From positions 1 to 39,848 of the IMG/VR virus record IMGVR_UViG_3300035365_000038: a DNA stretch of 39,848 nucleotides, one strand, 5' to 3'. Positions within the stretch are counted from its first letter, which is position 1. Every line of letters starts with the position of its first letter. Source of the DNA: a virus. Under the pieces are notes generated by a model. The model ran no database searches. It saw only the letters and a list, made by a program, of their open reading frames with translations, and was not told where the DNA came from. Positions 1-39,848 of this stretch are shown piece after piece. The position numbers were made by a program, and so were the translations under genes.

Positions 1-99
1 CCGGAGGCCAAAGAGAAACTAACAAACATACAAAAGAGAAAATACCATTATGAAGAAGCAAGACCATAAAGAAACCATAAAGAAAGCTTTATTCTTTAC
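1..99. repeat. Left copy of a 99-bp terminal direct repeat (circular-assembly overlap or terminal redundancy)
   Basis: 1-99 (ccggaggccaaagag...attctttac) is repeated base for base at 39750-39848. Unit length is 39749 bp. Confidence 0.95.
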
Positions 100-2452: not shown

Positions 2453-2707
2453 ATGAAACTTATAAAAGTGAAAATAGAAACGAATGTTGAAACCTCAATA
2501 GACGGGAAACCAGTGAATGAACTTCTGCAAGATATTGCAGATTTATGCCATGAAAGATTGGAATATTCAACATCAAAAGAAGAAGAATGCGAAACGCTAT
2601 ATGAGGATAATGAGTATGAAGCATTTTATGAGAAGATGAATTGTAGAATATCTAAACTTGAAGGTGCACTTTGTAGGATTTTAGACATGTTGGAGGACGA
2701 AATATGA
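2453..2707 (+). CDS. hypothetical acidic protein (84 aa)
   Basis: ATG follows AAGGAGGACTAAAAA. The stop overlaps the next start (ATGA). Confidence 0.6.
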   Translation: MKLIKVKIETNVETSIDGKPVNELLQDIADLCHERLEYSTSKEEECETLYEDNEYEAFYEKMNCRISKLEGALCRILDMLEDEI

Positions 2708-2895
2708 AAGGAGTAACACAGGCGGCAAAAAGAGCCAACGGCTTAAGCCAAGCATGCGGCAAATGTAGATATAGATTCAGAGACCCAGGCATTTGCGAAT
2801 TATGCGGAAAAGCATTTATAGAAGGATTTAAAAAGGGTGCCAAGTGGGCAGAGAATAAAGGAAAGGAGGTGGAAAATAATGAAGTACAGAAATAG
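2704..2895 (+). CDS. small Cys-containing protein (63 aa)
   Basis: Two CxxC-type pairs (CGKC, CELC), followed by FIEGFKKGAKWAE, which echoes the GAxW motif of the DUF551-like paralogues. Confidence 0.5.
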   Translation: MKGVTQAAKRANGLSQACGKCRYRFRDPGICELCGKAFIEGFKKGAKWAENKGKEVENNEVQK

Positions 2896-3235
2896 ACATA
2901 CCGGGGAAGTAGTAAATATAATATGCTGGGGCGGGCATACCCAAAGGGCGGAAAATGATTATGTTTCTTACATAGACGGAAAAGGAGAGGAACACGAAGC
3001 CGAGAGGGGCCTAAATTATTATTGGGATTTTGAACCGATAGAAGAACCGGATAAAACGCAAAAGGAGATCTTACAGCAACTCCGGGAAAATAATCAAATG
3101 TTACAGGAAATTTTAGCCTGGATAAGATTACAAAAAGACCCTAAATTTATAGAGCAAAAAATCCAGGAAGATTTTATAGTAGACTTTCTTTCGAATGTAG
3201 AAGCAACAAAATTTATAAGGAAGTTAGGAATATGA
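2879..3235 (+). CDS. hypothetical protein (118 aa from the ATG at 2879)
   Basis: The track ORF starts at 2837, but the ATG at 2879 is preceded by AAGGAGGTGGAAAATA, so I prefer 2879. Confidence 0.55.
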   Translation: MKYRNRHTGEVVNIICWGGHTQRAENDYVSYIDGKGEEHEAERGLNYYWDFEPIEEPDKTQKEILQQLRENNQMLQEILAWIRLQKDPKFIEQKIQEDFIVDFLSNVEATKFIRKLGI

Positions 3236-3558
3236 AAGCAAGGGTTATAAAAACAGGAAAGGTAATAGATGTAGAATTACACGTAGATATTAAAACAGAA
3301 GGGCCACCAAAGCCCGCAAAACATATACTAAAACTGTATATAGATTCCGAAGGGAATCAATACGCCGGGAAGGATCTAGATTTTATTAATCTTTACCCCG
3401 ATTGGCAAGCGATAAAGATACAGGCGGCAATAGCGGCGATGCAAGGCTTTATAGCTAATACGTCTTTTTACGCAGATACAGCCGGACCCGGAACCACCGC
3501 AGAATGGGCGGAAAAATACGCAGAAGCTTTAGTAACTAAATTACAAGAAAAGATATGA
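3232..3558 (+). CDS. hypothetical protein (108 aa)
   Basis: ATGA overlap at both ends. Confidence 0.6.
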   Translation: MKARVIKTGKVIDVELHVDIKTEGPPKPAKHILKLYIDSEGNQYAGKDLDFINLYPDWQAIKIQAAIAAMQGFIANTSFYADTAGPGTTAEWAEKYAEALVTKLQEKI

Positions 3559-3902
3559 GACTAAACAATAAAAAGAAAACGGACTATGCCGCCATTTCAA
3601 GGCGCTCAATTAAAAAAGATTTTTATTCCGAACAAATACACATGGAAAAGAAAACAGGGCCGGAGAAGCGAAATTCGAACGAAATAAGGATTTCCAAAAT
3701 AAACCCGGCTTGCCAGTACGCCAAATTTTCCCGGTTTTTTGTAGGGAAGCTAGTAAGACTAGCCGAAAAGGCAGGAACCGGGGACAGCACTACAGGATGG
3801 TATGAGTTTATCCGAGACGAAGACAGGAAAGCGATAAACGACGCCGCCGGATGGAGCGACAACAAAAGACAGTATTTTTTAGAAAACCCAAAATTAAAAT
3901 AG
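3555..3902 (+). CDS. hypothetical basic protein (115 aa)
   Basis: ATGA-coupled ORF. No motif recognised. Confidence 0.5.
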   Translation: MRLNNKKKTDYAAISRRSIKKDFYSEQIHMEKKTGPEKRNSNEIRISKINPACQYAKFSRFFVGKLVRLAEKAGTGDSTTGWYEFIRDEDRKAINDAAGWSDNKRQYFLENPKLK

Positions 3903-3908
3903 AAAGTT

Positions 3909-4271
3909 ATGAATTACAATGTAAAAATCAATCTAGCGAAGCTAAACAAGGTAGCAGCGGTAAACCTTACCGGGAAATCCGGAAATACGGTAAAATGCGT
4001 AGTTATACCGATAGAAGACAATGACATTTTCGTATCAGAAAAGGGCGGAATATATTTAGATATTACCGCAGTAGCAATGAAAAAGGAAAATTACGGGCAG
4101 ACCCATTTGCTTAAGAGACATATTCCATCGGAAAAATACCAGGCTATGAGTGACCAGGAAAAGGATAGTCAGCCAATTATAGGAGCATTAAGCCCGATTA
4201 AGGCGAAGCAAGCAGAAGTAACGGAAACAGCCCAGGTAGCCCAAGACGATAACGATGACTTACCCTTTTAG
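3909..4271 (+). CDS. putative non-canonical ssDNA-binding protein with an SSB-type acidic C-terminal tip
   Basis: C-terminus ...AQDDNDDLPF matches the conserved SSB tail (DDD-I/L-PF). It is preceded by a flexible Q/A/E-rich linker and sits in a recombination operon. Confidence 0.5.
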   Translation: MNYNVKINLAKLNKVAAVNLTGKSGNTVKCVVIPIEDNDIFVSEKGGIYLDITAVAMKKENYGQTHLLKRHIPSEKYQAMSDQEKDSQPIIGALSPIKAKQAEVTETAQVAQDDNDDLPF

Positions 4272-4485
4272 CATGAGACACTACAAACTAAGATTAGCCA
4301 TTAATGCGATAGCAGTAATATTGATTATTATTAGCAAGATAATAATCAGAAAGAAGCGAAAAATAGTATATTTCAACGCCAGCACCGGACAGGCCCGGTA
4401 TAGGATTGTATATTATACGCTGATATTTATTCCAATTTTTTACAGAACTAAAACAATACCAAACAAGAAGTATGCAGTACAGTAA
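4255..4485 (+). CDS. possible small membrane protein, doubtful
   Basis: 76-aa ORF spanning an otherwise non-coding 200-nt AT-rich gap. It has one hydrophobic stretch (AINAIAVILIIISKIII). The region also holds inverted repeats and may be regulatory instead. Confidence 0.25.
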   Translation: MTYPFSMRHYKLRLAINAIAVILIIISKIIIRKKRKIVYFNASTGQARYRIVYYTLIFIPIFYRTKTIPNKKYAVQ

Positions 4486-4933
4486 CAAAGATTATAACCA
4501 GGCACTACATGACAGATATAAGGCCCTTTCAGTTAAGCAGCCTTATGCCGAATATATAGCCAGCGGAGAGAAGACAATCGAAGTCCGCAGTAAGAGCACA
4601 AGTTACCGCGGGGAGTTATTAATTTGCGCCAGTAAGGACGGAAAACCGGACCCCAACGCCCCGGGATTTGCTTGTACGATAGCTTTCGTGGATCTGTACG
4701 ACTGTAAACCGCTAACCAGCTTAACCGACGAAGAGTGGAAAAGAACAAAACTGCCGGAATATCTAGTTCAGAAGCTTAAGCAGCCGGGAAGGGGATATGG
4801 CTGGTTCCTTAAGAACCCCAGGAGGGTAATAGAATTTCCTGTAAAGGGACAGTTAGGTATCTTTAACCTAGTATACACAAAAGGGGTTATAATGGAGTAT
4901 CCCAGGATCTTAAAAGACCCAGTAATAGAATAA
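4472..4933 (+). CDS. ASCH (PUA-like) domain protein
   Basis: LSVKQPYAEYIASGEKTIEVRSKSTSYRGELLICAS is the typical ASCH N-terminal signature. Confidence 0.75.
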   Translation: MQYSNKDYNQALHDRYKALSVKQPYAEYIASGEKTIEVRSKSTSYRGELLICASKDGKPDPNAPGFACTIAFVDLYDCKPLTSLTDEEWKRTKLPEYLVQKLKQPGRGYGWFLKNPRRVIEFPVKGQLGIFNLVYTKGVIMEYPRILKDPVIE

Positions 4934-4940
4934 GTACAAG

Positions 4941-4974
4941 GCCGGAAGAAAATAGCTTCCGGCTTTGCCTGTTT
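4941..4974 (+). terminator. intrinsic terminator-like hairpin
   Basis: GCCGGAAG-aaaatag-CTTCCGGC followed by TTTGCCTGTTT. It lies directly after the stop of 4472-4933. Confidence 0.55.
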
Positions 4975-4995
4975 AAAAAAATAATTGTATTTTTG
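4964..4995 (+). promoter_or_regulatory. Bacteroidota-type promoter for the accessory operon
   Basis: TTTG (4964-4967), 20-nt spacer, TATTTTTG (4988-4995). The first ATG is at 5027. Confidence 0.5.
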
Positions 4996-5026
4996 TCCTA
5001 TACATTGACATTTAAAATATAAAATT

Positions 5027-5281
5027 ATGGCGGATAAATTTTGCAGAAGATTAGAAGAGGTTGAAGCCGTACAGGCAAAGGCTAACAACCTAGAAGAATT
5101 AAGAAAATTTGCCGGAGCCGTGCAACGCGTAGAAGGCCGGACCAAACAAGCTCCCGGATATTATACCGTGCCAGGGCTAAACACAGTTTTATGGGATGGA
5201 AGTTGGCTAGTTAAGCACCCAAACGGCCGCCTGGAGATTAAGAGCAGCCAGCTATTCCACCGAGAGTATGAACCGAAATAG
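5027..5281 (+). CDS. hypothetical protein (84 aa)
   Basis: First ORF after the promoter. No motif recognised. Confidence 0.6.
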   Translation: MADKFCRRLEEVEAVQAKANNLEELRKFAGAVQRVEGRTKQAPGYYTVPGLNTVLWDGSWLVKHPNGRLEIKSSQLFHREYEPK

Positions 5282-5456
5282 TTATTTACCCCGGTGCCAT
5301 TGGAATAAGCAACACGGCCGGAGAAGGAAGGCAAAAAGGCCCTTTGAGACAATAGAAGAAGCAAACCAATACATAGAACAAAGGAACCTACAAACGAAGT
5401 ATAGAAGTTACAAATGCCACGTATGCGGGAAATACCATATAGGGCATAGAATTTAA
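5268..5456 (+). CDS. small basic protein with a C-terminal zinc-ribbon-like CxxC..H..H
   Basis: ...YKCHVCGKYHIGHRI at the C-terminus. Confidence 0.5.
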   Translation: MNRNSYLPRCHWNKQHGRRRKAKRPFETIEEANQYIEQRNLQTKYRSYKCHVCGKYHIGHRI

Positions 5457-5469
5457 TAAAACAAGAAAT

Positions 5470-5982
5470 ATGAAAAAGTACATTGGAACAAAACAAGTAG
5501 AGGCAATGCCTATGACACTAGGCGAGTACATTAAAAAGAGCGGAAGAAACCCGTACCAAAACAGTCAGGATATGCACGGGGAAAATGAACCGGGCTATTT
5601 GGTAAGATATAAAGACGGTTACGAAAGCTGGTCGCCCAAAGATGTTTTTGATGAAACCTACAGGGAAATTAAAGAAGAAACCGAAAATATGACATTCGGA
5701 GACGCAATCGAAGTTCTGAAACAGGGCGGAGCCATACGCAGAAAAGGATGGAACGGTAAAGGCCTGTTTGTAATTAAGCAGGTCCCGGCACATATTGAAG
5801 CCGATGTTATCCCTAAGATGCAATCGTTACCGCAAAACGCAAAAGATCTCATTTTGAAGGGCAAGGGCTTTATTGATTATACAAGCCAATGCCTCATTTA
5901 TAACGAGGCTACAGGCCGGGCAGATTCATGGGTGCCGAGCATTTCTGACGTATTTGCGGAGGATTGGGAAATAGTATTATAA
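5470..5982 (+). CDS. two-domain protein with a C-terminal DUF2829 domain (family of Thoeris anti-defence protein Tad2)
   Basis: Residues 74-170, MTFGDAIEVLKQGGAIRRKGWNGKGLFV...SWVPSISDVFAEDWEIV, match the DUF2829 hallmark (F-G-x-A-l-x-a-l-K-x-G, R-x-GW-N-G-K, D-l-x-AEDWEIV). The N-terminal YIGTKQVEAMPMT...GYLVRYKDGYESWSPKDVF module is often fused to it. Confidence 0.75.
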   Translation: MKKYIGTKQVEAMPMTLGEYIKKSGRNPYQNSQDMHGENEPGYLVRYKDGYESWSPKDVFDETYREIKEETENMTFGDAIEVLKQGGAIRRKGWNGKGLFVIKQVPAHIEADVIPKMQSLPQNAKDLILKGKGFIDYTSQCLIYNEATGRADSWVPSISDVFAEDWEIVL

Positions 5983-7440
5983 CCTACCGACCAGGGGCCG
6001 GAAAGGATAAGACAGCGTAAGTTACGGCTTGCGCTGTCAGCATTTAAATTAGAATATAAGAAAGAGTATCACAAAAATCCAAGAAAGATAACGCCGAAGC
6101 AGTTAGAGCAGCTTAAGGCGAACATAGAAGAGCTGGGAGACTTATCCGGAATAGTTCACGATCTTAACACAGACGAAATTATAGCCGGAAACCAGCGAAG
6201 CAAGGTTATAGACATAGCCAAGTGCGAAATAGTAATAACAGAGAAGTTTGACACCCCAACGCCGCAGGGAACTGTAGCCTGGGGATATGTTATTTTTGAG
6301 GGGCAGAAGCTTAATTATCGCCAAGTAAGATGGGACGACCGACAGCGGGAGAAAGCAAACATAACGGCCAACGCTTTAGGCGGTGATTGGGACTACCAAA
6401 TTCTAAAATCAGAATTTAGACTAACCGATTTAAGTAATTGGGGCCTTGATACAATAGAAAAAGAATTAAAAGAAGAAGTTACAAGAAAAGAAATCCAAGA
6501 GGATAAATTCAAGATTTGCCAAACGATAAAGACAGATATAAAAGAGGGAGATTTATTTCAAATTGGGGAGCATAGATTAATCTGCGGAGACAGTAAAAAA
6601 ATAGAGGTCTATCAAAATTTACTTAATGGGGAAAAGGTGGATTTAATAATAACTGACCCACCCTATAACGTAGATTATGGAGAAAAGAACCGAGCATTAA
6701 ATAAAAATCTTGACGGTGGAAGATTTAGTAATCCTTATGATATAAAAAATGATTGCATGAAAAGCAATGAATTTTATGATTTCTTGAATAAGGTATTTAC
6801 TAATTTGCATTGTTTTATATCTGATAAATGCCCGTTATATGTTTTTTATGGGCATGTGGAGACTTTAAACTTTTATCATAGCATAGAAGATGCCGGATTT
6901 TGCATAAAACAAATGCTGGTATGGGTCAAAGAACATTTTGTAATAGGTAGGCAAGACTACCAGTGGAAGCATGAGCCTATAATATACGGGTGGAGTAAAA
7001 ATGGGAAACCGCATTATTTTTGTGGCGAAAGGAATCACACTACAGTAATAGACAATTCAGAGGATTTACGAAAAAGAAGTAAACCCCAACTTATAGCGCT
7101 TATTAAGGAGATGATGAACAACACAAAAAGTGATGTTATTTATTGCAATAAGCCACAAGCAAGCAGCGAGCACCCCACAATGAAACCCGTTAAGTTATTT
7201 GGGGAGCTTATACAAAATAGTTCCATCGAAAACGATATAGTAATAGATGCTTTTGGTGGTAGTGGTACAACGCTTATGGCGTGCGAGCAGCTAAAAAGAA
7301 AAGCCCGATTAATAGAGCTTGATCCGGTTTTTTGTCAAGTTATTATAGACCGAATAAGACAATTTAATCCAGGCATAAAGATTATCAAAATTAAAAATAT
7401 ATACGAAGGAAGCAAGAAAAATGAGGATTCAGAGGATTAA
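5983..7440 (+). CDS. ParB-like N-terminal domain fused to a beta-class DPPY (N6-adenine type) DNA methyltransferase; translation start unresolved
   Basis: HKNPRKITPKQLEQL...IIAGNQR is a ParB-like fold. IITDPPYNV is motif IV, and VIDAFGGSGTTLMACEQL is motif I placed C-terminally. The frame is open from 5983, but the first ATG/GTG/TTG is the GTG at 6637. Confidence 0.75.
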   Translation, partial: PTDQGPERIRQRKLRLALSAFKLEYKKEYHKNPRKITPKQLEQLKANIEELGDLSGIVHDLNTDEIIAGNQRSKVIDIAKCEIVITEKFDTPTPQGTVAWGYVIFEGQKLNYRQVRWDDRQREKANITANALGGDWDYQILKSEFRLTDLSNWGLDTIEKELKEEVTRKEIQEDKFKICQTIKTDIKEGDLFQIGEHRLICGDSKKIEVYQNLLNGEKVDLIITDPPYNVDYGEKNRALNKNLDGGRFSNPYDIKNDCMKSNEFYDFLNKVFTNLHCFISDKCPLYVFYGHVETLNFYHSIEDAGFCIKQMLVWVKEHFVIGRQDYQWKHEPIIYGWSKNGKPHYFCGERNHTTVIDNSEDLRKRSKPQLIALIKEMMNNTKSDVIYCNKPQASSEHPTMKPVKLFGELIQNSSIENDIVIDAFGGSGTTLMACEQLKRKARLIELDPVFCQVIIDRIRQFNPGIKIIKIKNIYEGSKKNEDSED

Positions 7441-7478
7441 AAAAATATAGCCTGTGAAAACAAGCTAAAATGAGGCGA

Positions 7479-7545
7479 TTTGTGGCATTTTCTCTCACAA
7501 ATGGGTAGATTATACATTCTACAAAAGAAAACCGTTTGTGAGAGA
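7479..7545. promoter_or_regulatory. nested inverted repeats in the methyltransferase/HTH intergenic region
   Basis: ATTTGTG (7479-7485) pairs with CACAAAT (7496-7502). TCTCTCACAAA (7491-7501) pairs with TTTGTGAGAGA (7535-7545). The two pairings overlap and are mutually exclusive. Confidence 0.4.
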
Positions 7546-7589
7546 TTTTCTATTAAAATAACTGTAACTAAATAAAAGAGAGTAACAAC

Positions 7590-7856
7590 ATGAGTCTAAA
7601 GACAAATAACCCCCGGAATATAGCTAACAAGAGGACAGGAGGCAAGAGAACGGTGGAACAGAGAGAAGCGGACAAATGCTTCTGCGCCGATTTATTTGTA
7701 AAGGGGTATACATACAGGCAGATAGCAGAGCGCCTCAATACACACAACCGAGAAAACGGACTTACTTATGAGCTAACTTACAAAACAATATTTTGCGATA
7801 TTAATCAAGTATTAGTAGAGTGGAAAAAAGAACGCTTTGAAATGGAGAAAAGTTAA
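7590..7856 (+). CDS. small HTH protein (88 aa)
   Basis: KGYTYRQIAERLN is a typical helix-turn-helix core. The gene lies upstream of the packaging genes. Confidence 0.55.
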   Translation: MSLKTNNPRNIANKRTGGKRTVEQREADKCFCADLFVKGYTYRQIAERLNTHNRENGLTYELTYKTIFCDINQVLVEWKKERFEMEKS

Positions 7857-7900
7857 GGGTTTACTTCCCGGTGAATTTGATAACTCAAAAGCAGAATAAC

Positions 7901-8479
7901 ATGATCAAGTTAAACGAACTAAGAGATAAAGCCTACCAAAACGCAGTTGTTCACGGCTGGCATGACGAAGATAAGAGTGATAGTCACTGGCTTTGTCTGG
8001 TAATATCCGAGCTGATGGAAGCAGTGGAAGCTGACCGGAAGAACAGACACGCAAGTGTAAAGTTTTTTAATCATAGCATTGATTACGCTTTGCGTGAGTT
8101 GCATCTTACGAAACAGGATTTCAGTAATTATTTCTTCAACTCATACAAAGAAAATATAAAAGACAGTGTAGAGGAAGAACTTGCAGATGCTTGTATCAGG
8201 ATTTTAGATCTTGCCGGATTAAGGAATACAGATTTAGATGATTTTGACTATGAAGGAAGCGACACTATGGATTATTCTGGAATGTCCTTTACAGAGGCAA
8301 TGTTCCACATTAGCAGGATGGCCACAGATGAATTTTATATAGGTGAATTCATCGCATTGCTTTTGAACGAAATATTCGCTTTTTGCCAAGATCGGGAAAT
8401 TGACATCTTCTGGTATATCGAGCAAAAGATGAAGTATAATGAACTTAGGCCATACATGCATGGAGGCAAAAAGTACTGA
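7901..8479 (+). CDS. MazG-like all-alpha nucleoside triphosphate pyrophosphohydrolase
   Basis: NAVVHGWH...LCLVISELMEAVEADRK and EEELADACIRILDLAG...KMKYNELRPYMHGGKKY match the MazG-like pattern. I prefer the ATG at 7901 to the track's GTG at 7871. Confidence 0.65.
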   Translation: MIKLNELRDKAYQNAVVHGWHDEDKSDSHWLCLVISELMEAVEADRKNRHASVKFFNHSIDYALRELHLTKQDFSNYFFNSYKENIKDSVEEELADACIRILDLAGLRNTDLDDFDYEGSDTMDYSGMSFTEAMFHISRMATDEFYIGEFIALLLNEIFAFCQDREIDIFWYIEQKMKYNELRPYMHGGKKY

Positions 8480-31369: not shown

Positions 31370-31372
31370 AAA

Positions 31373-31404
31373 TTTGCGGGAAAGAAAACAAATAGCTATA
31401 TTTG
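31373..31404 (+). promoter_or_regulatory. Bacteroidota-type promoter feeding directly into a terminator
   Basis: TTTG (31373-31376), 20-nt spacer, TATATTTG (31397-31404). Confidence 0.5.
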
Positions 31405-31408
31405 TGAA

Positions 31409-31481
31409 CCAAAAAACGCATTCTCTAGGTACAACCTTAAGGCCCGTTGCATTTACCGCAAATGTAACGGGCCTTTTTTTT
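31409..31481 (+). ncRNA. candidate small RNA of about 70 nt, or a terminated leader
   Basis: The predicted start a few nt after 31404 is followed by an ATG-free stretch that ends in a 14-bp hairpin plus T8. Confidence 0.4.
31441..31481 (+). terminator. strong intrinsic terminator
   Basis: GGCCCGTTGCATTT-accgc-AAATGTAACGGGCC (one G-U pair) followed by T8. Confidence 0.75.
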
Positions 31482-31491
31482 AAACCTAAAC

Positions 31492-31522
31492 TTTGTAGAA
31501 TTAAAATAAATATTTAATTTTG
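31492..31522 (+). promoter_or_regulatory. early promoter P2
   Basis: TTTG-TAGAATTAAAATAAATATT-TAATTTTG with a 19-nt spacer. ATG at 31545. Confidence 0.65.
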
Positions 31523-31544
31523 CAAGGACTAAAAACAAATTATT

Positions 31545-31784
31545 ATGATACTAAGAATTAATGAGGCTATAGCTAGAGCCGAAAGAAACGGAAAAAAGAT
31601 CTTAAAGAAAGAACTGGCGGCAAAGATTTGGACCAACAGCCGCCCGGAAGCCCAGGCGGTAAACATGACTAACTTATGCACCGGAGTAACTCAAAAAATA
31701 AACCCGGAATGGATAATAGTAATTTGCAAAGAAACAGGATGCAGCGCCGATTTCCTGTTAGGAATTAAGGAGGATGATAAATGA
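31545..31784 (+). CDS. XRE-family (Cro/CI-like) HTH regulator
   Basis: KKELAAKIWTNSRPEAQAVNMTNLCTG...ICKETGCSADFLLGI is an HTH_3 pattern. 79 aa. Confidence 0.8.
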   Translation: MILRINEAIARAERNGKKILKKELAAKIWTNSRPEAQAVNMTNLCTGVTQKINPEWIIVICKETGCSADFLLGIKEDDK

Positions 31785-31951
31785 AAAGAATAAATTATAT
31801 TTTGTATCGCATAGCCTTGTATTTAGGCAGCGACAAATTTACAAAGGGAGCTTTTAAGTTTTTCGCTATTATAACACTAATAGGAGGATTTATTAACCCG
31901 GTTTTTTTGATTTTTTCAATAGGTTTTTTTATCGCGAACAAAGTAATATAA
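31781..31951 (+). CDS. small membrane protein (56 aa, below the track cutoff)
   Basis: ATGA overlap with the XRE stop. FFAIITLIGGFINPVFLIFSIGFFI is hydrophobic. I prefer it to the antisense 79-aa ORF at 31795-32034. Confidence 0.45.
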   Translation: MKRINYILYRIALYLGSDKFTKGAFKFFAIITLIGGFINPVFLIFSIGFFIANKVI

Positions 31952-31971
31952 CAATTTAAACAGACTAGAGA

Positions 31972-37568: not shown

Positions 37569-37572
37569 AATG

Positions 37573-37600
37573 ATCCCGGACGAAAATCCGGGATTTTTTT
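37573..37600 (+). terminator. intrinsic terminator
   Basis: ATCCCGGA-cgaaaa-TCCGGGAT running into T7. Confidence 0.75.
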
Positions 37601-37620
37601 ATCAAAAAAACGGGAAAAAT

Positions 37621-37651
37621 TTTGTGGAATTAAAATAATTCTTTAAATTTG
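37621..37651 (+). promoter_or_regulatory. early promoter P3
   Basis: TTTG-TGGAATTAAAATAATTCTT-TAAATTTG with a 19-nt spacer. Confidence 0.65.
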
Positions 37652-37720
37652 CGACAACAAACAAGGGAAATGATTCTCAGCCGACCAGACGGGTATCTGG
37701 TACCAAAATAATAAAAAGAT

Positions 37721-37984
37721 ATGGAAGCTAAAAAATTAATCGAATTCGTAAGAAATAATGATTTTATGTATGCAAATGGCGCAGGCGCCATGTTTGCAAC
37801 TGATGATGAAACAAGAGAATATATAGCCAAAGAAATTGAGCGCGCATATAAAATCCGAGAATTGAATCAGGAAGAAGTAGAGGAAGAATATTCTGAATTC
37901 ATCGGCGAAATAGAAAACGGATGCACAATCTGCGAGGCAATAATCTGGAATGAATCACAAATTTGCGTAGCATATTACGAATAA
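37721..37984 (+). CDS. hypothetical acidic protein (87 aa)
   Basis: First ORF after P3. Confidence 0.6.
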   Translation: MEAKKLIEFVRNNDFMYANGAGAMFATDDETREYIAKEIERAYKIRELNQEEVEEEYSEFIGEIENGCTICEAIIWNESQICVAYYE

Positions 37985-38024
37985 GGGTCCTTTGGGTAGG
38001 ACTAGCCCACGGCGGTGGGCGCAT

Positions 38025-38175
38025 GGTATCGTGACGGAACAGGAAAGACGTCGCATGAAAACTAAGGGACTTTTACTCCCGAAACCGAAGGTAAACGTAA
38101 AGTCGTATTGTAGGTTTCAAAAGCTCATGTAGTGTGGCTATAGACGCAATGCAGGTTCGAATCCTGCCGATACCA
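38025..38175 (+). ncRNA. tRNA-like structured RNA (acceptor stem plus canonical T arm with a large internal insert); not a canonical tRNA
   Basis: GGTATCG (38025-38031) pairs with CGATACC (38168-38174). The T arm GCAGG-TTCGAAT-CCTGC (38151-38167) abuts the 3' acceptor strand, and the discriminator is A38175. No ORF lies in 37985-38218. Confidence 0.45.
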
Positions 38176-38187
38176 CATTATTAACCA

Positions 38188-38218
38188 GCCTGGGGAACCA
38201 GGCATAAACCTAAAGAAT
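38188..38218 (+). promoter_or_regulatory. intercistronic hairpin cassette, copy c
   Basis: TAACCA-GCCTGG-ggaa-CCAGGC-ATAAACCTAAAGAAT-ATG. Confidence 0.5.
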
Positions 38219-39622
38219 ATGTATATTAAGCAAATTGAATTAAAGAACTTCCAAACTATTAAGGAGTTCAGCGGTAATTTTGAAGGTAATGTATACCTTA
38301 TTACAGGCGAAAATGAATTGGGCAAAAGTACACTACTTAAAGCTATAGCCGCGCTTTTAACCGGGAGCCGTGATGAAGTACTAAGGATCGGAGAAGAAAA
38401 AGGCTTCGCGAAAATTGTAGTAGGCGGAGACGGGAAAGAATACGAAGTAGAGCTTCGAATGACGAAGGCAAACCCGCGCGGAACTTTGACTATTAAGAGC
38501 AAAGATACCGGGATGCGTTCCGACCGTCTGACCGTATTACAAGAAATTTTCGGGTACCAGGATTTCGACGCGAATGAGTTCGTTTCCTGGAGCGAAACGG
38601 CGGAGGGGCGCCGGAAACAAGTACAGATAGTAAAATCACTGTTACCGGACGAAGTACAAAAGAGAATAGCAGAAATAGACGCAGAAGTAGTAAGTATTAA
38701 GGAGGCCCGGAAAGATGATAACGCAGAACTTAAGGCATGCAATACAATACTAGCGAAATGCGAAAAAGAGATAAGCCCGGAGGACCTGGAGAAATATGCG
38801 AAGCCTTTAGAAATGAAGGATCTTTTAGAAGAGCAACAGAAGGCCAACGCCCTAGAGGCTAAAGCGGCCGGGGTAAGGGAGAAGCTAAAGCAGCGAGAAG
38901 ACACTATTAAGGCTGTAGCCGGGAAAACAGAGCAGGCAGAAGCAAGAATTAAGGAAGCCCGGGAGAGCTACCAGCGTAAAGTGGACCAGGCAAAGACAAT
39001 TTTAGAGGAAACATTGAAATCTTTATCCGAAGAGCTACAGGAGAAGGAAAAAATATATAGCCAGGAACTGGAGGCTATACAGGCAGAGGAAAAGGACGCA
39101 ATAACCCGCCGCGACAACTGTATAAAATGGCTTAAGGAATATGAAGACAACAGGCCCCAGGATATAAGCCAGCAGATAGCGGATATACAACACCACAACG
39201 AAATGAACGCCAAAGTAAAAGACTACCAGCAGGCAAAAGATAATTATAATGAGGCAAAGCAAAAAGTAGCCGCGCACGAAAAGAAATTATTAGACCTGGC
39301 AGACGAACGCGAAAAACTTGTAAAAGGGGCTAAGTTACCTATACAGGGCCTTAACTTTAGCGAAGACGGCCTGGAGCTTAACGGCGTACAATTCGTAGCA
39401 GGAAAAGTTTCGGATTCGCAAATAATGGAAGTAGCCGCGAAGCTTATAATAGCCAAAAACCCAACAGTTAAGGTTTTCCGAATTGCACGCGGCGAGAGCC
39501 TAGGCAAAAAGAAGCTTGAAGCGCTTATAGAATTGGCACGCAAAAACGGCTACCAGGGCTTTATAGAGCAAGTAGTGCGCGAGCAAAACGAGTTAAGAAT
39601 TGAAGAGTATAACGAAAAATAA
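38219..39622 (+). CDS. SMC/Rad50/SbcC-like coiled-coil ATPase
   Basis: N-terminal IELKNFQTI...ITGENELGKSTLLKAI (Walker A), about 250 aa of K/E/Q coiled coil, and a C-terminal globular lobe. Confidence 0.8.
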   Translation: MYIKQIELKNFQTIKEFSGNFEGNVYLITGENELGKSTLLKAIAALLTGSRDEVLRIGEEKGFAKIVVGGDGKEYEVELRMTKANPRGTLTIKSKDTGMRSDRLTVLQEIFGYQDFDANEFVSWSETAEGRRKQVQIVKSLLPDEVQKRIAEIDAEVVSIKEARKDDNAELKACNTILAKCEKEISPEDLEKYAKPLEMKDLLEEQQKANALEAKAAGVREKLKQREDTIKAVAGKTEQAEARIKEARESYQRKVDQAKTILEETLKSLSEELQEKEKIYSQELEAIQAEEKDAITRRDNCIKWLKEYEDNRPQDISQQIADIQHHNEMNAKVKDYQQAKDNYNEAKQKVAAHEKKLLDLADEREKLVKGAKLPIQGLNFSEDGLELNGVQFVAGKVSDSQIMEVAAKLIIAKNPTVKVFRIARGESLGKKKLEALIELARKNGYQGFIEQVVREQNELRIEEYNEK

Positions 39623-39653: not shown

Positions 39654-39818
39654 ATGACGGACAAAGACAAAAATTTGATATACCAGGCAAAGAGATTGCC
39701 GTATACATTATGGCCACAGATAGACGCCTTTATAGAAGACGCAGATACCCCGGAGGCCAAAGAGAAACTAACAAACATACAAAAGAGAAAATACCATTAT
39801 GAAGAAGCAAGACCATAA
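39654..39818 (+). CDS. hypothetical protein (54 aa from the ATG at 39654)
   Basis: The track start at 39600 overlaps the ATPase end and the hairpin. The 3' part of the gene is duplicated at 1-69 by the terminal repeat. Confidence 0.5.
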   Translation: MTDKDKNLIYQAKRLPYTLWPQIDAFIEDADTPEAKEKLTNIQKRKYHYEEARP

Positions 39819-39848
39819 AGAAACCATAAAGAAAGCTTTATTCTTTAC
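39750..39848. repeat. Right copy of the 99-bp terminal direct repeat
   Basis: Identical to 1-99. It includes the start of the 50-430 gene (ATG at 39799). Confidence 0.95.

Follow-up and report, generated by a model that had tools for sequence, protein, structure and literature searches.

A phage gene for a ParB-like DNA methyltransferase, otherwise normal, most probably lost its start codon through a single point mutation in the viral DNA analysed here (IMG/VR record IMGVR_UViG_3300035365_000038, positions 1 to 39,848; this whole stretch of 39,848 nucleotides (nt) is referred to below as the window). A T to A substitution at position 6059 has turned the ancestral ATG into AAG at the head of a gene that would run from 6058 to 7440; the same allele recurs in independent assemblies and the remainder of the gene is intact. 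The spacer of 75 nt that precedes the gene is in frame with it and free of stops by chance, and the ParB-like part of the gene happens to contain no internal starts, which together give the appearance of a frame of 218 codons that has no start. We put the probability of this reading, the loss of a start codon in an otherwise normal ParB-like methyltransferase gene with the openness of the flanking sequence due to chance, at about 0.9.

The start codon in the window and in its relatives

Translation of positions 5470-7440 gives a protein of 170 amino acids that ends at TAA 5980-5982, followed in the same frame by 485 open codons as far as TAA 7438-7440. By a codon-by-codon scan, the first canonical start in this frame after 5983 is GTG 6637, and it is there that a mechanical list of open reading frames (ORFs) begins an ORF of 267 amino acids. 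A first-pass annotation of this DNA had described 5983-6636 as a startless frame, and the same scan agrees, finding 0 stops and 0 in-frame ATG, GTG or TTG codons. Its observation that the Tad2-like gene and the methylase ORF share one frame, with only TAA 5980-5982 between them, is confirmed by the translation; ATA 6007 and CTG 6034 are, as it had stated, the sole in-frame codons of these kinds near the N-terminus; and the stretch that it gave as lacking ATG in every frame, from 5983 to about 6075, is in fact wider, extending over 5929-6286. What it overlooked was the position at which homologues start, 6058-6060, which reads AAG here.

A search with the 485-codon translation returned thousands of homologues, the closest of which are 460 (P0001, 93% identity), 464, 452 and 455 amino acids long. 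In the protein alignment the closest homologues all begin, or have a Met, at one column, with MKEYHKNPRK and variants of it, where the window reads KKEYHKNPRK; the window codon at this column is AAG 6058-6060. Upstream of the column no window residue aligns with any homologue. One homologue (P0002) has an extension of 8 residues arising from the gene caller's choice of an upstream TTG, with the conserved M still in place.

P0001 is encoded by locus L001, a Logan contig from SRR29449922, in which a Tad2-like gene of 170 amino acids at the same relative position is followed by the same TAA, a 75-nt spacer and ATG. Over window positions 5880-6140 this nearest relative is identical at 259 of 261 positions; the differences are the T to A change at 6059 (ATG to AAG) and a synonymous CCT/CCA change at 6081, where the window state, CCA, is also found in other relatives. 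A diversity-generating retroelement was considered as the origin of these two neighbouring T/A differences, of which the one at 6081 is plainly synonymous. Over the longer interval 2692-7842 the two sequences are 97% identical; apart from a single divergent patch, differences occur about once every 100-200 nt. The comparison with orthologous loci that the first-pass annotation had proposed thus finds the TAA kept in the nearest relative, and an ATG after the 75-nt spacer.

The homologous codon was also read in further loci from the Logan, IMG/VR and metagenome collections. ATG stands at this codon in 11 loci (L001, L003, L005, L007, L010, L021, L022, L023, L024, L027 and L031); in a more distant group the ATG is shifted upstream by one codon (MAKEY..., MPKEY..., MPQAY...) and in L018 by four, and near the aligned position in the most distant relative (L020) no start codon was identified. 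Sequence before the ATG is unrelated between lineages and has in-frame stops in L005 and L031, conservation beginning exactly at the ATG. Because relatives have ATG and conservation begins exactly there, the comparison shows that ATG is the ancestral state and AAG the derived state in the lineage of the window. Megablast of 5200-7600 against GenBank phages gave no match; an exact-pattern scan of the start region, in which the variable base was given as N, had no match in viral_contigs or genome_contigs; and single-protein locus queries of viral and metagenome collections returned 0 relatives, whereas alignment-based queries did find relatives.

The features of the region are as follows.

5470-5982, + strand: Tad2-like gene of 170 amino acids, with an ATG start and TAA at 5980-5982; a separate gene and not part of the methylase
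5983-6057, + strand: intergenic spacer of 75 nt, taken to be non-coding, its open frame and its phase with the genes on either side being due to chance
6058-6060, + strand: AAG codon where the ancestral ATG stood, with T to A at 6059; located by protein and DNA alignments of homologues
6058-7440, + strand: frame of 460 codons for a ParB-like/beta-class N6-adenine DNA methyltransferase, intact except for the start; stop TAA at 7438-7440
6058-6462, + strand: ParB N-terminal-like domain (about residues 1-135), bearing a box I-like NPR and a box II-like GNQR motif
6550-7392, + strand: methyltransferase core, residues about 165-445, with motif IV TDPPY (6652-6666) and motif I FGGSGT
6637-6639, + strand: GTG (Val194), start of the 267-amino acid product for gene callers; probably not a genuine start, and not conserved as a start
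6589-7000, + strand: patch divergent from L001, with 61 codon differences; a probable recombination patch

Identity and integrity of the methyltransferase

The protein encoded in the window matches the DNA methyltransferase family PHROG 498 over its full length (2.9e-112), and Pfam PF01555 (N6_N4_Mtase) covers residues 194-429 (5e-31); TDPPY and FGGSGT are both visible in the translation, motif IV (TDPPY) preceding motif I (FGGSGT) within the C-terminal 270 residues. Residues 2-148 match PHROG 620, 'ParB-like partition protein', at 1.8e-18, and Pfam PF02195 (ParB_N) is matched by 46 of the 73 full-length homologues. A Pfam search with the N-terminal 193 residues of the window protein gave no match even at E<=10, and the assignment to the ParB-like group rests for this reason on PHROGs and on the homologues. 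The ParB-like N-domain that the first-pass annotation had recognised from motif resemblance is thereby placed on firmer ground, with the caveat that this copy itself lies below Pfam thresholds.

An AlphaFold2 model built from the 73-sequence alignment has a mean predicted local distance difference test score (pLDDT) of 80, and has strands at residues 165-169 and 172-176 and a helix at 182-189 (pLDDT 97-98) just before the DPPY strand at 196-199. The best Foldseek matches of this model are CcrM (2.7e-14), M1.HpyAVI (1.5e-13), M.BceJIV and MboIIA, with template modelling scores, normalised to the target, of 0.78-0.81 for CcrM and M1.HpyAVI; a profile search of PDB sequences returned the CcrM, DpnA-type, MboIIA and RsrI enzymes. 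Phages of Faecalibacterium, Ruminococcus, Fusobacterium and Streptococcus encode annotated homologues with 34-38% identity. By these matches the predicted product is clearly a member of the family in which a ParB-like domain is fused to a beta-class N6-adenine DNA methyltransferase, with putative activity of that kind. The ParB-like domain also occurs as a stand-alone protein, unfused to a methyltransferase, in L022, L023 and L027 (about 170 amino acids) and in L024 (211 amino acids), and because several relatives encode it in this form the N-domain would appear to exist as an independent module.

Measured against the 73 full-length homologues, the window protein departs from the conserved residue at 0 of the columns that are shared by 90% or more of them; over all members the median number of such departures is 1 and the maximum 21. 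When the gene was examined as a candidate pseudogene, the start lesion was present by comparison with intact orthologues; further frameshifts, stops and loss of conserved residues were absent. With the start codon set aside, it differs from L001 by 7 synonymous and 3 non-synonymous changes outside the patch at 6589-7000. Within the patch 61 codons differ (31 synonymous, 30 non-synonymous) and the flanks are about 99% identical; the patch covers motif IV and the variable region that follows it, and no sampled relative is more than 80% identical to it there. Because the synonymous divergence is both high and localised, the patch indicates recombination from an unsampled lineage and not decay, and it might have brought a change of target specificity. 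Decay following the loss of the start was considered as its cause and rejected, since the changes are confined to one sharply bounded stretch and half of them are synonymous. The intactness of the gene cannot separate one that is recently dead from one that is still used, because with about 1% divergence since L001 no decay is expected in either case.

The run of coding codons that contain no start

A run of 193 coding codons with no ATG, GTG or TTG has a probability of about 7e-5 under the codon usage of the window; given the amino acids encoded (0 Met, 8 Val and 16 Leu), the choices of Val and Leu codons have a probability of about 0.005 and the lack of Met one of 0.013. L001 shares this start-poor run, having no internal candidate before a TTG at codon 188, and in more distant relatives the same region includes several internal ATG, GTG or TTG codons. 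The run is thus an inherited accident of this lineage and not a conserved trait, and it is visible only because the single start codon has gone. Initiation out of frame followed by a +1 or -1 frameshift was also considered and rejected, as the sole candidate, TTG 6029, meets TAG 6050 after 7 codons.

Expected expression of the mutant gene

In Escherichia coli, codons other than AUG, GUG, UUG and four near-cognates initiate at about 0.01-1% of the AUG level (bioRxiv 10.1101/063800). Because AAG belongs to this class, full-length enzyme would be expected at a trace level at most, and we infer that the phage strain has hardly any or no full-length enzyme, being methylase-null or a strong hypomorph. 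Several considerations weigh against the start-codon loss reading: the loss of expression is a matter of inference; the rules of initiation have been measured less thoroughly in the presumed Bacteroidales host than in E. coli; the lack of secondary decay would also fit continued use of the gene; and the AAG-carrying sequencing runs (described below) have neighbouring accessions and may represent one study and one phage population.

There is a small chance that an active methyltransferase consisting of the catalytic part only, 267 amino acids long, is made from GTG 6637. This codon is the first canonical start and is preceded by purine-rich sequence (GGGGAAAAG), and the PF01555 model fits entirely inside the product; the purine run says little, however, in a genome in which most genes have no Shine-Dalgarno sequence. 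Such a product would be without residues 165-193, that is, without the two strands and the helix modelled at pLDDT 97-98, and the missing segment holds the family-invariant residues H172 and C176 together with the nearly invariant G164, D165, G170, R173, L174, G177 and S179. Moreover, codon 6637 is GCA (Ala) in L001 and encodes Ile, Cys or Val in other relatives. We regard an active enzyme of 267 amino acids as unlikely. The first-pass annotation had offered a recently lost start, such that only the half beginning at GTG 6637 is made; the recent loss is borne out by the T to A change at 6059, and the second part of that proposal is doubtful for a product that has lost residues 165-193.

We see only a slim chance that functional enzyme is still obtained through non-canonical initiation (at AAG 6058, ATA 6007 or CTG 6034) or through termination and reinitiation, which would make AAG an expression-tuning allele. 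The persistence of the allele in complete genomes from several runs and the wholly intact coding sequence are compatible with this, as is the fact that a methyltransferase may need few molecules; and low-level starts from many codons are measurable in E. coli (bioRxiv 10.1101/063800). Yet AAG is outside the better near-cognates and in the class initiating at 0.01-1%, relatives use ATG alone at this position, ATA 6007 and CTG 6034 lie within or beside a hairpin at 6011-6038, and the intactness of the gene carries no weight on so short a branch. Reinitiation and non-canonical initiation, which were among the explanations first put forward for the startless frame, are left without support.

Occurrence of the AAG allele in other assemblies

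The window corresponds to contig Ga0247327_1000251 of JGI dataset 3300029905, described as a chicken faecal sample from China (PMC8849064). The cluster that contains the 267-amino acid gene call has a second member, P0121, seen on Logan and ENA contigs of up to 39,868 nt; it is probably the same sequence as the call in the window, differing only in how the GTG is translated. Look-up of P0121 gave 10 contigs of 20-50 kilobases (kb) with the same 267-amino acid call, of which two were inspected. L029 (SRR4096739, 39,779 nt) is 100% identical to the window over 6,804 nt and L030 (SRR4096733) is 100% identical over 5,842 nt; both carry AAG. These runs are separate libraries and were assembled by a different pipeline than the window; a single study is their probable source, and overlap with the JGI data is possible. 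Because the libraries are separate and the assembly pipeline differs, a random base-call or consensus error can be regarded as excluded.

It is accordingly very improbable that the consensus is wrong and that the true genome has ATG at 6058-6060 and a normal gene, even with the gene differing from its nearest relative by a single base in surroundings that are otherwise identical. The same AAG would have to have been miscalled in assemblies of at least two other runs, made by a different pipeline and each 100% identical to the window; the truncated call is present on ten contigs; and a systematic error at a site that is not a homopolymer is unlikely. No ATG version of this exact gene was found in the protein collection, in which the 90% cluster of P0001 consists of P0001 and P0122 only. 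An error at the TAA, which the first-pass annotation had also raised, is contradicted by the identical AAG-bearing assemblies from other sequencing runs.

The upstream Tad2-like gene and the intergenic spacer

Residues 74-169 of the upstream protein match Pfam PF11195 at 1.4e-20 (74.1 bits against a gathering cut-off of 25), and the protein also matches PHROG 872 at 7.5e-44; these matches would place the gene in the Tad2-like (PF11195) anti-Thoeris family, and the label DUF2829 that the first-pass annotation had given to 5470-5982 was correct, being the former name of PF11195. The L001 gene likewise encodes 170 amino acids and ends at the same TAA, with 4 base differences from that of the window.

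The spacer at 5983-6057 is identical in L001, and the sequence upstream of the ATG is unconserved in other relatives. It contains, on the + strand, a 12-bp hairpin with a UACG loop (6011-6038) followed by an A/U-rich stretch, the same being present in L001; CTG 6034 is inside the hairpin stem and ATA 6007 just upstream of it. RNA folding of 5975-6095 (121 nt) gave -26.3 kcal/mol, with z = -2.72 against shuffles. In a terminator scan the spacer hairpin failed the T-run criterion, its T-run being short; a promoter and terminator scan of 5300-7700 gave no call in the spacer and, overall, no more than expected from shuffled sequence; and Rfam at gathering thresholds had no match in the whole window, hence no known RNA element in the spacer. 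The hairpin is possibly a terminator-like or regulatory stem following the Tad2-like gene, and 5983-6057 is ordinary intergenic DNA.

Upstream gene content varies among relatives. In L007 and L009 the methylase is separated from a Sequestin/Tad2-like gene by one for an HNH endonuclease, and L003 and L005 have no Tad2-like gene; because L001 has a normal ATG behind the same TAA and spacer and other relatives carry different upstream genes, the shared frame and open spacer of the window are incidental. At the Tad2-like position, L007 (4614-5330) and L009 (963-1679) encode a fusion of 238 amino acids between Sequestin (PF21825) and a Tad2-like protein, which is followed by the HNH gene and then by the methylase. 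The Tad2-like/methylase neighbourhood is a variable anti-defence island.

Programmed read-through of the TAA, giving a Tad2-like/ParB/methyltransferase polyprotein as the first-pass annotation had suggested, has a negligible probability: the shared frame, the TAA standing alone between the two genes, the open 75-nt spacer and a stable hairpin 29 nt downstream of the stop would all suit it, but L001 has the identical TAA, spacer and hairpin and yet an ATG for the methylase, other relatives have no upstream Tad2-like gene, have the two genes separated by an HNH gene, or have their ATG preceded by in-frame stops, TAA ends 18 of the 40 window genes (TGA 18, TAG 4), and a shared frame together with a stop-free spacer is expected by chance in about 10% of cases on a rough estimate (1/3 x ~0.2-0.3 for 25 stop-free codons). 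A tRNA scan of the whole window found none, thus no suppressor tRNA; an alternative genetic code with reassignment of a stop was rejected on this ground and because all three stops end genes.

Genome context

Window positions 1-99 and 39750-39848 are an exact 99-nt overlap, and because the ends overlap in this way the window is a complete circular phage genome of about 39.75 kb. Its large terminase is closest to Bacteroides phage terminases (42% amino acid identity), most window genes have no Shine-Dalgarno sequence and their leaders are A-rich. A host of the Bacteroidales, in the chicken gut, is probable, and a Bacteroidales host fits the terminase, the scarcity of Shine-Dalgarno sequences and the A-rich leaders. 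The methylase gene lies in an early or accessory region together with an ASCH-domain gene and the Tad2-like gene.

Window and L001 cease to be homologous within the gene at 7590-7856 (L001 6102-6749), which encodes 88 amino acids versus 215 in L001, the first 81 residues being identical; the downstream packaging modules differ, with Terminase_3 in the window and Terminase_6N in L001. There is thus a mosaic junction at 7590-7856, and the 88-amino acid ORF may be a truncated remnant. At window position 3258, within an ORF of 108 amino acids (3232-3558), L001 has one A fewer (at about 1770) and no gene called; L001 carries either a single-base lesion of its own in this different accessory gene or an assembly error. 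Between the mosaic junction and the small terminase gene is an ORF of 202 amino acids (7871-8479) matching the PHROG 9236 pyrophosphatase family (1.7e-57), for which the JGI and L029 calls use a downstream start (192 amino acids). Positions 38219-39622 encode an AAA_15/ABC-type ATPase of 467 amino acids with an SMC-like N-terminus, overlapped on the opposite strand by a GTG-initiated ORF (38125-38904) that is probably spurious. Three intervals of 600-860 nt (1973-2836, 31370-31971 and 37569-38218) have no + strand ORF of at least 90 amino acids.

Consequences of the mutation

A phage gene of a known kind has here undergone an ordinary point mutation in its start codon, which recurs in several assemblies of what is probably a single phage population; the AAG allele shows no new translation mechanism. 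It would represent the recent loss of a dispensable accessory (anti-restriction) gene, a loss that is either recent or tolerated. The AAG allele may be neutral or, in a host that restricts methylated DNA, may be advantageous; selection of the knockout by methylation-dependent restriction is possible, and unsupported. There is a faint prospect that the allele is kept for a low but adequate level of enzyme, through Shine-Dalgarno-independent initiation at AAG behind an A/U-rich leader in a phage of the Bacteroidales. If this were true, AAG initiation would be a natural form of expression tuning by a codon whose middle base is not that of AUG; we know of no accepted natural start codon of this type.

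For annotation, the gene callers (JGI and Logan) give a 'methylase' of 267 amino acids from GTG 6637 and leave 655 nt unannotated; the correct annotation would be a ParB-like methyltransferase gene of 460 codons with a mutated start codon. In a chicken-gut phage, a strain that is naturally deficient in the methylase would also form, together with relatives in which the gene is intact, a pair that could be used to address the question of whether the enzyme matters for host range.

Comparison with known systems

Fusions of a ParB-CTPase-fold domain to an N6_N4 methyltransferase are reported to be enriched in phages and prophages, and a role in anti-defence has been proposed for them (PMC12704722). 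The window gene has the same architecture as these phage ParB_N fusions and clear homology to them, including PF01555 and the DPPY, FGGSGT, NPR and GNQR motifs; the catalytic domain, the ParB-like N-domain and the beta-class fold are all present. It differs from them in having AAG where the initiation codon stands at the conserved N-terminus, and in an N-domain that falls below Pfam thresholds. In profile and fold the C-terminal 270 residues resemble the beta-class enzymes CcrM (6PBD), M1.HpyAVI (5HEK/5HFJ), M.BceJIV (8URK), M.MboIIA (1G60) and M.RsrI (1EG2), with motif IV ahead of motif I as a shared feature; unlike the window protein, these enzymes have no ParB-like N-domain.

The likeness to the read-through of the Q-beta A1 protein is superficial and limited to layout, two in-phase frames with one stop between them; in the window this layout is unconserved among relatives, in which the downstream gene has its own ATG. 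The window gene also resembles start-codon loss alleles of accessory phage genes, in which there is one disabling substitution in a gene that is otherwise intact by comparison with its orthologues. It has no further lesions, and a gene that is dead, dying or weakly expressed would fit equally with this comparison.

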